This document shows, in pieces, positions 14,365-17,486 of a DNA stretch of 64,000 nt (its first letter is position 1; every line of letters starts with the position of its first letter). The stretch covers positions 1-64,000 of IMG/VR virus record IMGVR_UViG_2693429768_000001; one strand, given 5' to 3'. This stretch comes from a virus. Lineage: Duplodnaviria; Heunggongvirae; Uroviricota; Caudoviricetes. Made by a program: the position numbers and the translations under genes. The notes below the pieces were generated by a model. That model was not told where the DNA came from. It saw nothing but the letters and a program-made list of their open reading frames with translations, and ran no database searches.

Positions 14365-15210
14365 ATGCTGGCTAAAGTCACTTTCCTGAGCTGTATAACG
14401 ATGAGCGATTTTACTTTTTCTGGCTATGAATTGGCCTTCTTTGTAACACACTCCGGTCTATCCCGTAGCGCCGGGCATATCCTGTCGCAATGTGCAAATC
14501 TCGCGGCAACAACCAGTGAATACTTCATTCACAAGCCCCACCGCCTGATCGCGGCAGAAACTGGTTATAGCCAATCAACCGTCGTTCGTGCATTCCGTGA
14601 AGCTGTAAACAAAGGAATTCTATCTGTAGAGATTGTTATCGGCGATCACCGTGAACGTCGCGCTAACCTGTACCGGTTTACACCATCCTTTTTGGCCTTC
14701 GCACAACAAGCCAAAAATGCGCTGATTGAAAGCAAATTAAAGATCTCTTCAGCGGCAACCAAGGTTAAAGCTGTTCTCGCTAAGACATTGGCTTTATTTA
14801 ATTTTTTATCCACACCCCCATGTCAAAATGATACCCCCTCCCCCTGTCAGGATGACGTGGCAATAAAGAATAAGAAGTCACAAGTTAAAAAAACAAAAAG
14901 ATCAGTTTCCGGCGGTGCCGGAACGACCAGACTCAAAAAATTGACTTCATGGATCGCTGAGGCAAAAGCAAAGGCTGACAATCTGCGGTTATCCAAAAAA
15001 CGCGCTCAAAAACATGAGTTCAAGCAGAAAGTAGAGGCGGCAGCGCGGAAATATGCTTACCTGAAGGACAAGCGTTCTCCTGATATTGGCGGGATATCAA
15101 ACTTCGATAATCTGCCGCATTGCATGACGGTAAACGAAGCTCTTAATGCGGTTTTAGCCAAAAATAAAGATAACGAAAAATGGGGTATACCGGCAGGATT
15201 CAGGGGATGA
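14365..15210 (+). CDS. repL: Lytic replication protein RepL (oriL expected inside), 281 aa
   Basis: Size and position match recalled P1 RepL; ATG 14365. Confidence 0.7.
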   Translation: MLAKVTFLSCITMSDFTFSGYELAFFVTHSGLSRSAGHILSQCANLAATTSEYFIHKPHRLIAAETGYSQSTVVRAFREAVNKGILSVEIVIGDHRERRANLYRFTPSFLAFAQQAKNALIESKLKISSAATKVKAVLAKTLALFNFLSTPPCQNDTPSPCQDDVAIKNKKSQVKKTKRSVSGGAGTTRLKKLTSWIAEAKAKADNLRLSKKRAQKHEFKQKVEAAARKYAYLKDKRSPDIGGISNFDNLPHCMTVNEALNAVLAKNKDNEKWGIPAGFRG

Positions 15211-15260
15211 TAGATTGCTCTAATCTGGAGTCACCTGGCGTTTTCAGTTTGAGGTCGGAG

Positions 15261-15527
15261 ATGCAATCTGATTTTTTACAGTTAGCGATCGCTTTTGCAG
15301 GATATGTTTGTATTGGCTTCTGTGTATACATGATCAGCCGAAAAATGCTTGTCGATATCGACCGCAAAGAACGAGCAGAGGAGATCTTAGTATGGATTTT
15401 CTTTGGCGCGGTCTGGCCATTAGGGATCATGTTTGCTGCAACATTTCTTCGATGTGGATATTCACCCTTCCAGGTGATTTCTATAGAAAAAAAGCCAGAC
15501 ATTGATACAATCGTTGCGGGTGCTTGA
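15261..15527 (+). CDS. Small two-helix membrane protein, 88 aa
   Basis: Start moved to ATG 15261 (RBS GAGGTCGGAG); hydrophobic segments LAIAFAGYVCIGFCVYMI and ILVWIFFGAVWPLGIMFAATFL. Confidence 0.45.
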   Translation: MQSDFLQLAIAFAGYVCIGFCVYMISRKMLVDIDRKERAEEILVWIFFGAVWPLGIMFAATFLRCGYSPFQVISIEKKPDIDTIVAGA

Positions 15528-15628
15528 GGCTATCTGCTTCAGGCATGACCCGAAAAGCAGATAGAAGAAAGCCCCAGATAACATTACGCGTCCTGCAAGA
15601 CGCTTAACATTAATCTGAGGCCATATCT

Positions 15629-15835
15629 ATGCTTAGCATACGTAGATTAGCCTCTTACCGACCAAAAGGTCAAGGAGAAGCAGGCTATGAAGCAGCAAAA
15701 AGCGATGTTAATCGCTCTGATCGTCATCTGTTTAACCGTCATTGTGACGGCACTGGTAACGAGGAAAGACCTCTGCGAGGTACGAATCCGAACCGGCCAG
15801 ACGGAGGTCACTGTCTTCACAGCCTACGAATCTGA
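15629..15835 (+). CDS. mok: mok-like overlapping reading frame of the hok locus, 68 aa
   Basis: ATG 15629; overlaps hok in a different frame as in hok/mok/sok loci. Confidence 0.55.
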   Translation: MLSIRRLASYRPKGQGEAGYEAAKSDVNRSDRHLFNRHCDGTGNEERPLRGTNPNRPDGGHCLHSLRI

Positions 15836-15842
15836 AAGGTAA
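15687..15842 (+). CDS. hok: Hok/Gef-family type I toxin, 51 aa
   Basis: Manual translation MKQQKAMLIALIVICLTVIVTALVTRKDLCEVRIRTGQTEVTVFTAYESER; near-identical in pattern to recalled E. coli Gef/HokC; below the ORF-track size cutoff. Confidence 0.85.
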   Translation: MKQQKAMLIALIVICLTVIVTALVTRKDLCEVRIRTGQTEVTVFTAYESER

Positions 15843-16196
15843 GAGACCTGGCGGGGAGTGATCCCCGTCACTCTTCGTGTGTCTGGTAACCTCAATGCAC
15901 CCTTTTCTCCCCAATAGTGTAAAACACAATGAAGTAGAAGGAGTTATTTCACATCATGCAAAGATTCAGACCATATCTCCCAATAGCCTTCGCGACATGA
16001 TGACTTTCAGAAATATCTAGCTGTTAACAAAATTCCATACTTGCTTTGCTAATACCACCTAGATTATATATGGAAAAATACACCTAAAACTTAAACAAAT
16101 TATATCCACAACAAACATCCATCTATTAGGATTAAAATTAATTTAATAATAAATAATACAACACCGGTTCATTTTCTAACAAACCGGTGGGCACCA

Positions 16197-17189
16197 TTAT
16201 TGGAATAACTTACTGATTACATTAAAAACATTAAGGGCGTTACTTGCCACACTAGACATCTTGGCTGAATTTTTTTCGATTGAGTCAAGAACACTTTCGA
16301 CTTCCGATAAAGTTCTTCTGCTATCTGCATCTTTTCCTGAGTCTATCGCATCTTTAATTGCAGATATAGCAGACTCTAAATTCTCCTTAAACTCACCTGT
16401 CGTCTCATCCTTCAAGAGAAGTTCTAACTCTTGTTTAAGTTTTTCCAATGATGCTCTTTTCTCATCAGTTTTACTAATCTTCCCTGAATAACTGACACAA
16501 ACACATTCTCTTTTATTGCAGACAGGACAACCATTTAGATAATAACTTTCAAACGCCTCGCCAAGATCATCATCTTTAAAAATAATCCCCCATAAAGAAA
16601 ACAACCAAGCATATATATCAGCACACTCTTCATGAAGATTTTCTTTGTTGTAATTTTTATCTTCAATTGATTTAGCATAAGCCTCTTGCAACTCACCCAA
16701 CTCTTCGAATAACCTGGATGAATGATAAAACCCACCAAAAGTAGACCAAATGGTTCTATTCGACGGATAGATGTCATTAATCATTCGTGGCGCATAAGGC
16801 GGAAATTGCATAGGTTTAATAGCGTTATATTTATTGAAAAGCTCATCTTTAATTCCTTTTGCGCTTCTTATTTTCTCTGGCTTTCTGTGTGTTTGAGAAC
16901 AGGAACAAGGCGCCCCTAAGCAATAAGGACAGCAACTAGGAAATTTTTTATAAAATGCTTCCTGTGGTTGTATTTCAAGTTTATCACAGATTGCAAAAAG
17001 CCAAGACAATGCTTCTATATAGGTATTTTTTAATAATTCTTTATCCTGATTACCATCACGAATAAACTCACGTGTTAAATAAGCTGTTTTCCTTGTCAGA
17101 TAAGAGTACATATACTCAAATGATTTTTCTTCATTTTTTTTGCTGTAAATACCTACAATAATATTGCTCATATCATTGATACGTAACAT
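16197..17189 (-). CDS. MazG-like nucleotide pyrophosphohydrolase-like protein with two Cys-cluster zinc-ribbon motifs and a C-terminal coiled coil, 330 aa
   Basis: Start at ATG 17189 (RBS AAGAGGAA); EELGELQEA...EECADIYAWL = EExxE...EExxD signature; CCPYCLGAPCSCS and CPVCNKRECVCVS; AT-rich; hairpin terminator at ~16150-16185. Confidence 0.6.
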   Translation of the reverse strand: MLRINDMSNIIVGIYSKKNEEKSFEYMYSYLTRKTAYLTREFIRDGNQDKELLKNTYIEALSWLFAICDKLEIQPQEAFYKKFPSCCPYCLGAPCSCSQTHRKPEKIRSAKGIKDELFNKYNAIKPMQFPPYAPRMINDIYPSNRTIWSTFGGFYHSSRLFEELGELQEAYAKSIEDKNYNKENLHEECADIYAWLFSLWGIIFKDDDLGEAFESYYLNGCPVCNKRECVCVSYSGKISKTDEKRASLEKLKQELELLLKDETTGEFKENLESAISAIKDAIDSGKDADSRRTLSEVESVLDSIEKNSAKMSSVASNALNVFNVISKLFQ

Positions 17190-17486
17190 GACATTCCTCT
17201 TAAATAAGCCAATACTTCCTAGAACCATATATGCTTCGACAAAGATTAACGGACATCTTGCCTTCACAAACTTTGACGCTACATAAATTTAACCATGTGC
17301 ATACTAAATATTTAAGGTAGAAAAGTATAGGAGTATTTATTAATAGGTAACTGTTAGTTTACACTCACTTCATACCAGAGTATTTACAAGATGTTATTTT
17401 ACTCTATTCGCTAGGCGGTGGAATGCGGTTGTATCAAGGGGAGGTAAACCTCCCCCGAAGAAGATTAAAAGTACAAGGGATAACAC

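Follow-up and report, generated by a model that had tools for sequence, protein, structure and literature searches.

A divergent MazG-like protein with two cysteine clusters, carried as single-gene cargo by a P1-like phage-plasmid

Introduction

MazG, HisE and the dimeric deoxyuridine triphosphatases (dUTPases) belong to the superfamily of all-alpha nucleoside triphosphate pyrophosphohydrolases (NTP-PPases). MazG chemistry is the alpha-beta cleavage of linear nucleoside triphosphates (NTPs), and the MazG protein of Escherichia coli, which has a proposed tie to stress and toxin-antitoxin biology, has been reported to lower (p)ppGpp. Phages carry such proteins as well: dUTPases are found in temperate staphylococcal phages and MazG in cyanophages. 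In this study, we analyzed a gene for a 330-residue MazG-like protein in a 64,000-nucleotide stretch of viral DNA (IMG/VR record IMGVR_UViG_2693429768_000001, positions 1 to 64,000; hereafter the window), which is a P1-like (IncY) phage-plasmid of E. coli. The protein appears to form a divergent branch of this superfamily, and we tentatively propose that it is a pyrophosphohydrolase used in conflict between phages.

The dimeric all-alpha dUTPases, such as Dut of staphylococcal phage phiDI (5myd) and Dut of Campylobacter jejuni (1w2y), share with the window protein the superfamily and the acidic metal-binding helices, and short relatives of the window protein are encoded in thymidylate-synthesis clusters, a setting that would suit a dUTPase. 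However, their identity to the window protein is 7–8%, the Foldseek comparison is not significant, and they lack the cysteine knuckles and the charged tail, whereas the window protein has both, together with an evident tandem repeat in which one copy is apparently dead. E. coli MazG (3cra), a tandem-domain NTP pyrophosphohydrolase, likewise has two MazG-like domains per chain and the EExxE...ExxD chemistry. The Foldseek match to it is not significant either (E = 2.3), and the two putative C4 knuckles, the presumably dead N-terminal copy and the 90-residue tail set the window protein apart from it; moreover, E. coli MazG is a core gene, whereas the window protein is mobile-element cargo. The nearest sequence-level matches to the C-terminal module are SSO3215 (1vmg), AF_0060 (2p06) and YpjD (2gta). 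Unlike the window protein, these are single-domain proteins of ~95–120 residues that form homodimers or tetramers and have no duplication, knuckles or tail. The phage MazG and NTP-PPase-like proteins (PHROG 2245, 1247 and 1992; cyanophage MazG) are related through a weak profile match to phrog_2245. They occur mostly in virulent or jumbo phages, whereas the family of the window protein was found in no virulent phage record, and the Cys knuckles and tail are specific to the latter.

In function, the closest parallel is offered by the anti-phage systems that deplete deoxynucleoside triphosphates (dNTPs), namely dCTP deaminase, dGTPase and PUA-Calcineurin-CE-HAD. They share the dNTP-starvation logic proposed here, and a cytidine/dCMP deaminase is fused to relatives of the window protein; however, their catalytic fold differs, and the window gene has no PUA, HAD, HD or kinase-like partner. 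A MazG-like phosphoesterase has been reported as a replacement dNTP-targeting effector in rare PUA-HAD systems (10.64898/2026.01.15.699771), and MazG and dUTPase have been predicted as defense domains, none of them experimentally validated (DefensePredictor paper, 2026, PMC13092281). In the literature on MazG-like proteins, defense and conflict, we found no description of the present family; Burroughs et al. 2015 lay outside this comparison. The superfamily and the general idea are already known. What appears to be undescribed is the module itself, the set of domains fused to it, and its transport by prophages as a one-gene moron.

Results

Domain architecture of the window protein

An earlier note on this DNA, made from the letters alone, had read the open reading frame (ORF) at 16197–17189 as a MazG-like protein of an architecture that it did not recognize. 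The ORF is real: a frame of 330 codons occupies exactly these positions on the minus strand, and the plus-strand frame is rich in stops. Its ATG at 17189 is the start of RefSeq WP_000944483.1 ('MazG-like family protein'), encoded on near-identical plasmids. A longer, GTG-started ORF (to 17267) was rejected, because the position of the Shine-Dalgarno (SD) sequence and the N-termini of homologues agree with the ATG. The dN/dS ratio against a relative borne by a P2-like phage is ~0.05, which is approximate because dS (~3.1) is saturated; the gene is under strong purifying selection. The features of the protein are as follows.

16197–17189, minus strand: coding sequence, 330 residues plus stop (stop codon 16197–16199), RefSeq WP_000944483.1
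16944–17180, minus strand: N-terminal degenerate MazG-like helical module, residues 4–82 (AlphaFold2 helices; hhalign)
16899–16931, minus strand: putative Cys knuckle 1, CPYCLGAPCSC, residues 87–97; C87, C90, C95 and C97 invariant
16797–16898, minus strand: inter-module linker, residues 98–131, with a helix at 110–124 and a low-confidence loop (AlphaFold2)
16542–16796, minus strand: predicted catalytic MazG-like module (C-terminal), residues 132–216
16692–16706, minus strand: predicted metal-binding motif 1, E162-E163-L-G-E166 (conservation; kept in nearly all fusion classes)
16617–16628, minus strand: predicted metal-binding motif 2, E188-C-A-D191, followed by A194-W195 (conservation)
16497–16529, minus strand: putative Cys knuckle 2, CPVCNKRECVC, residues 221–231; C221, C224, C229 and C231 invariant
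16200–16472, minus strand: charged helical tail, residues 240–330 (AlphaFold2; composition)

A first homologue search yielded 28 clusters only, all of ~330–340 residues. When 1.84 billion representatives were searched exhaustively with a profile, 993 relatives were found at E ≤ 1e-3, of which 444 had E ≤ 1e-10 and 101 had E ≤ 1e-30. Conservation was assessed on 143 representatives at ≤50% identity, each with two Cys clusters. The EExxE...ExxD signature pointed out earlier is present (FEELGELQEA, residues 161–170; EECADIYAWLF, residues 187–197). E162, E163, E166, E188, D191, W195 and both C-x2-C-x4-C-x-C clusters are invariant in the alignment of the 28 clusters; in the 143 representatives, the acidic residues E162/E163/E166/E188/D191 are 92–95% conserved, and all eight Cys are 100% conserved. 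Both Cys clusters of the earlier note were thus present, except that C86, the first residue of its 'CC', is not conserved and does not belong to the motif.

The second, degenerate repeat that had been suspected is borne out by a profile-profile comparison: hhalign aligned residues 1–100 with residues 132–234 at 99.4% probability (E = 4e-22). The protein is therefore a tandem duplication of a helical module plus a Cys knuckle. In this alignment, every acidic metal-site residue of the first copy is replaced, and the second copy alone keeps EExxE...ExxD. The first copy is predicted to be catalytically dead, leaving one intact metal-nucleotide site, in the second copy.

The AlphaFold2 model calculated from the family alignment is confident and all-helical (pLDDT 82.8, pTM 0.72), in line with the all-alpha core fold of the superfamily. 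The N-terminal module consists of helices 4–19, 24–44, 50–70 and 75–82; W63 is conserved in it, and the acidic metal-binding residues are lost. Both Cys clusters lie in loops (pLDDT ~55–85). Since no strands are predicted there, C4 knuckles are more likely than the zinc ribbons envisaged earlier, and both knuckles probably bind zinc. The tail is rich in D/E/K/R (35%), and its conservation is limited to hydrophobic positions. It was modeled as four short helices (pLDDT 53–85) rather than as one long coiled coil. With no enzyme-like conservation, the tail looks like a structural or oligomerization element; the possibility that it is a third degenerate MazG copy was rejected (hhalign probability <3%).

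Superfamily assignment

The window protein matched the NTP-PPase family PHROG 2245 over residues 145–196 (E = 3.5e-6). In a search of the PDB, the family profile matched the MazG-like structure 1vmg (E = 1.1e-4) and, more weakly, 2p06, 5ie9 and 2gta. The matches to the small MazG-like proteins (E = 1.1e-4 and 7e-3) cover residues ~149–218 of the C-terminal module, and the motif residues align with those of 1vmg and 2p06. The acidic signature ExxE(E)...ExxD on two helices is present in the C-terminal module only. A scan against NCBIfam gave no meaningful match for the window protein, and no curated model covers this branch above its threshold; some relatives do exceed the Pfam MazG threshold (P0142, 27.1 bits; P0159, 29.1 bits). 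The MazG assignment of the earlier note was thus supported by the PHROG and 1vmg matches, but the Pfam score fell short (see Discussion). From the profile and fold evidence, rather than from a curated threshold, we conclude that the protein is in all likelihood a divergent branch of the MazG/HisE/dimeric dUTPase superfamily.

Fusions, neighbors and short forms in the wider family

A scan of one genome per species gave 35 loci, which range from Pseudomonas and Vibrio to Chloroflexi, Acidobacteria, Bacteroidota, Patescibacteria and an archaeon. In distant relatives, a core of ~233 residues is fused to TIR (N- or C-terminal), cytidine/dCMP deaminase, Ser/Thr kinase, GGDEF or CHAT protease domains; a fusion to a PNP-type phosphorylase was seen in one case, with a weak match. 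The acidic pentad is kept in 101 of the 113 stand-alone full-length forms. No GGDEF, CHAT, deaminase or PNP fusion has lost it, and its retention is less strict in the TIR and kinase fusions. Near distant relatives lie genes of type IIG and type III restriction-modification, DRT, E1-E2 and SAVED/TIR, mixed with housekeeping genes.

Short, core-only forms (~230 residues) occur in housekeeping contexts in small genomes, and some adjoin ribosomal protein genes. They stand beside thymidylate-pathway genes in three independent loci, where the contexts are DHFR-DCD-ThyA-Tmk-NUDIX-SHMT, DHFR with DCD/dUTPase, and SHMT-Tmk.

L052, 5001–5693: short form in a thymidylate context
L056, 17–709: short form in a thymidylate context
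L058, 2197–2901: short form in a thymidylate context

These contexts suggest that the short forms may constitute an unannotated family of dUTPase-like or dCTPase-like housekeeping enzymes. A distant relative with 35% identity (P0028, locus L010) lies directly downstream of the ribonucleotide reductase genes nrdA/nrdB (1155–5727) and is followed by a 177-residue lookalike of REP-associated tyrosine transposases (7164–7697). Downstream of the Aliivibrio relative, a 194-residue gene (L020, 11065–11649, plus strand) contains 'YRGENL...', which recalls the R-S-E motifs of ADP-ribosyltransferases.

Close relatives and their carriers

The close relatives (47–79% identity) are lone cargo in differing temperate elements. 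The copy in a P2-like phage lies between gpS and gpV, that is, in the orf30 locus, one of the three sites at which P2-like phages often harbor genes gained by horizontal transfer (PMC3091744). The Providencia copy is located at the end of a P2-like prophage, and the Pantoea copy is in the early/nin-like region of a lambdoid prophage, between a DNA methylase and Ant/NinG/Q. Another close relative stands beside an integrase, and yet another is in a chromosomal islet of Pectobacterium. At the DNA level, the similarity between the window and the P2-borne copy covers the coding region and the ribosome-binding site only, beginning 12 nt before the ATG. A search of 50,697 phage records gave a single carrier of a homologue, an 8-kb filamentous Vibrio prophage with no other accessory gene, where the homologue lies between a zot-like gene and a repressor; no virulent phage in these records carries a homologue.

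All-versus-all clustering of the three neighbors on either side, at 32 loci, gave no recurrent family; the repeated '75-aa' and '260-aa' neighbors were rejected as a family because they are of equal length by coincidence, with no homology. In the Pantoea/Pectobacterium subclade, a 248-residue protein is encoded on the same strand, ~70 bp downstream of the MazG-like gene, with 64–83% identity among the copies.

L004, 9068–9805: 248-residue downstream protein
L008, 9080–9826: 248-residue downstream protein
L014, 7077–7823: 248-residue downstream protein

It has hydrophobic helices at both termini and a coiled middle (two transmembrane segments), and a role as membrane partner or effector is possible. 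A tblastn search found no match to it in the window or in the loci of the P2-borne and Providencia copies (L005 and L012). Because it is conserved in one subclade only, an obligatory partner gene was rejected. Small transmembrane proteins that are unrelated to it are encoded after other full-length relatives (L016+1 and L019+1). The close relative P0020 (locus L011) adjoins a 1,234-residue protein with a weak match to the reverse transcriptase domain RVT_1 (1588–5292, minus strand) and a 144-residue transmembrane protein (1145–1579, minus strand); this pair may be a DRT-like defense system.

The cargo cassette in the P1-like phage-plasmid

The gene sits in the variable repL-bplB slot of the P1-like phage-plasmid, in agreement with the mobile-element hotspot named in the earlier note. 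The same slot holds rlfA-rlfB-pmgF in P1 and rapA-rapB in P7, and it is empty in the P1 variant MH422554. The local gene order is repL (plus), a small ORF, sok/hok (plus), the MazG-like gene (minus), and then bplB, pmgG, 21, 22 and 23 (all minus). According to the composition profile, the cassette has a GC content of 30–38%, against ~50% in its flanks.

15906–17453, minus strand: single-gene cargo cassette, 1,548 bp (blastn boundaries against L003/L002; composition profile)
17194–17201, minus strand: Shine-Dalgarno-like AAGAGGAA, 4 nt before the ATG (sequence read)
16152–16189, minus strand: terminator-like hairpin with a 12-bp stem (5 G-C pairs) and a T-rich tail, starting 8 nt past the stop

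A second terminator-like hairpin overlaps the end of bplB. The gene was found in 17 of the 719 PLSDB plasmids that match the region and in 19 of 5,426 complete E. coli genomes. Every copy is on a P1-like plasmid and they are at least 99.8% identical, which points to a recent, single acquisition. Because it is this rare in P1-like elements (~17 of 719 plasmid records), the gene is presumably dispensable for P1 biology. The low GC content of its cassette, the SD and terminator-like hairpin that the cassette itself supplies, the sharing of only the coding sequence with the P2 copy, and the lack of a recurrent neighbor indicate that it is probably an autonomous moron moving among temperate phages.

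The right boundary of the cassette is spanned by a hairpin, GGGGGAGG-TTTA-CCTCCCC (17438–17456, minus strand), and P1 homology begins at 17454; the hairpin may be a recombination or terminator site for cargo exchange in the repL-bplB slot. In several P1-like plasmids (NZ_MG196293.1, CP063732.1, NZ_LR883966.1 and NZ_CP020936.1; hits H21, H25, H30 and H32), the IS4-family element IS421 (~1.35 kb) is inserted in the 3.5-kb region around the gene; the slot is therefore still undergoing remodeling.

Neighboring features of the window

A hok/sok type I toxin-antitoxin locus (15518–15842, plus strand) is convergent with the MazG-like gene.

15518–15692, plus strand: sok RNA (Rfam RF01794, 113.9 bits)
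15687–15842, plus strand: hokD-like coding sequence

It was rejected as part of the cassette unit because P1 variants without the cassette retain hok/sok. The Rfam scan found no element in the cassette flanks, its sole match being the sok RNA outside the cassette; on this ground, a regulatory RNA or riboswitch in the flanks was rejected. Between repL and sok/hok, a small hydrophobic ORF (15260–15505, plus strand) is annotated only as hypothetical (WP_001426344.1, 82 residues); the longest ORF in its frame has 115 residues, from 15180. The lytic replication initiator RepL of P1, whose gene contains oriL (14365–15210, plus strand), is named inconsistently on RefSeq plasmids, as 'MarR family transcriptional regulator' or 'helix-turn-helix domain-containing protein'.

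Discussion

The reading that we prefer, although we hold it with less than even confidence, is that the window protein is a self-contained (d)NTP pyrophosphohydrolase that is directed at the nucleotide pool and used in phage-phage conflict or defense. The two helical modules, each capped by a four-Cys (probably zinc) knuckle, would pack as a single-chain pseudo-dimer. The second module alone holds the Glu and Asp residues expected to bind Mg2+ and nucleotide, which would give one active site, and the charged tail probably mediates oligomerization or positioning. A (d)NTP would be hydrolyzed to the monophosphate and pyrophosphate, the likeliest substrates being pyrimidine or non-canonical dNTPs. 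As a moron on a P1-like phage-plasmid, the gene would protect the lysogen from superinfecting phages by removing nucleotides that they need, either by conditional dNTP depletion or by constitutive destruction of phage-specific dNTPs. Three points speak for a functional (deoxy)nucleotide pyrophosphohydrolase, possibly one that prefers pyrimidine or non-canonical dNTPs: the thymidylate context of the short forms, the dUTPase-like fold resemblance and the near-universal catalytic residues. The tail-bearing subfamily is likely to act in conflict because it is carried only by temperate elements, in known accessory slots, is absent from virulent phages, and has TIR, CHAT, deaminase and kinase fusions among its relatives. 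Of the two roles offered in the earlier note, defense or conflict is thus favored by the temperate carriage, the moron slots and the fusions, and anti-defense is disfavored by the lack of virulent carriers among the 50,697 phage records. We infer zinc binding, catalysis, substrate, defense role, expression in the lysogen and any phenotype.

Several results weigh against the preferred reading. The Pfam MazG model (PF03819) scored 14.7 bits (E = 0.037), below its gathering score of 22 bits. The Foldseek searches of the model against the PDB and BFVD gave nothing significant, the BFVD matches to phage 'NTP-PPase-like' proteins being weak (TM-scores of 0.4–0.6 on the target). PADLOC-DB v2.0 (2023) gave no significant match, the best being LmuB on the tail (E = 0.015). 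A promoter scan found no more sites than in shuffled sequence, which bears on expression in the lysogen. The defense genes near distant relatives were counted as raw presence with no background correction, and some of them may be housekeeping genes picked up by generic PADLOC models (UvrD-like, kinase). Furthermore, a constant module with a swappable effector, as in the forms with an N-terminal module and a C-terminal GGDEF, CHAT or TIR domain, is a sensor-like layout, and the housekeeping context of the short forms equally fits benign pool sanitizing.

The last two points lead to the main competing explanations. The module may be a sensor or switch that binds, and perhaps slowly hydrolyzes, a nucleotide alarm signal or an aberrant nucleotide made by a phage, and thereby controls an output; we regard this as rather unlikely. 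The output would be the fused domain in the relatives and, in the window protein, tail-driven oligomerization or an unlinked or neighboring effector. One constant module is indeed joined to a variety of outputs, in N-terminal as well as C-terminal arrangements; the layout of the GGDEF fusions is the classical one, with N-terminal input and C-terminal output, and the tail is retained in the TIR and deaminase fusions. The conserved two-transmembrane protein downstream in the Pantoea/Pectobacterium subclade and the unrelated small transmembrane proteins after other full-length relatives could be such effectors. However, the window copy has no downstream gene and ends in a terminator-like hairpin, the membrane partner is missing from the window and from the P2-borne and Providencia copies, and no neighbor recurs across the family. 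In the tail, no polar residues of the kind expected in an effector are conserved, and the metabolic-cluster setting of the short forms argues for a true enzyme. Alternatively, the protein could be a dUTPase- or MazG-like pool sanitizer, a house-cleaning or lysogenic-conversion enzyme that serves the replication fidelity or yield of the phage-plasmid or the fitness of the lysogen without excluding phages, or it could reduce (p)ppGpp, as E. coli MazG is reported to do. This is an unlikely account, although it is consistent with the short relatives in thymidylate-synthesis and other housekeeping contexts, with the early/nin-like position of the Pantoea lambdoid copy, and with the dUTPases of temperate staphylococcal phages and the MazG of cyanophages. 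Virulent phages most often bear nucleotide-metabolism genes, yet none in the 50,697 records has a homologue. The sole-cargo position in the filamentous prophage, the late-region moron slots in P2 and P1, and the rarity in P1-like elements also speak against sanitizing, and the subfamily fused to TIR and deaminase domains is the tail-bearing one.

The absence from virulent phages also speaks against the anti-defense role, in which the enzyme would hydrolyze a signaling nucleotide of host immunity or an immune substrate and let the phage-plasmid escape CBASS-, Pycsar-, Thoeris- or type III CRISPR-like systems. A predicted nucleotide-directed hydrolase on a phage genome, encoded directly after bplB on the strand of the late genes, would suit such a role. 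However, many relatives are chromosomal and non-phage, and the TIR, CHAT and deaminase fusions are typical of host immunity. The protein has no similarity to the 2H (Acb1) or metallo-beta-lactamase (Apyc1) folds and no such Pfam or PHROG domain, its fold being all-alpha. MazG chemistry acts on linear NTPs, and MazG is not known to open cyclic oligonucleotides. We therefore consider anti-defense very improbable.

A broader proposal, which we rate as rather unlikely, is that the tandem MazG-knuckle unit is a previously unrecognized, phylum-spanning module for recognizing aberrant nucleotides, and that the stand-alone, tail-bearing forms provide constitutive, non-suicidal immunity. The stand-alone forms would selectively hydrolyze phage-specific or non-canonical dNTPs such as 5-hm-dCTP, dUTP, 5-hm-dUTP or dZTP and spare the host pool, and in the relatives the same recognition event would set off the fused output, be it TIR, CHAT, deaminase, PNP, kinase or GGDEF. 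If true, this would be the first MazG-based antiviral system and a new class of innate-immunity sensor. Should the protein prove to be a pool sanitizer, the family would represent a new zinc-knuckle branch of MazG/dUTPase enzymes, with a tie to thymidylate synthesis in bacteria and archaea that have small genomes. The gene offers a compact test case, being 1 kb long with its own SD and terminator and circulating on P1-like phage-plasmids of E. coli, and the ligand of the ~233-residue module would annotate ~1,000 protein clusters (50% identity) across many phyla. If the gene protects lysogens, pyrophosphohydrolysis would be a new enzymatic route in nucleotide-pool-based immunity.

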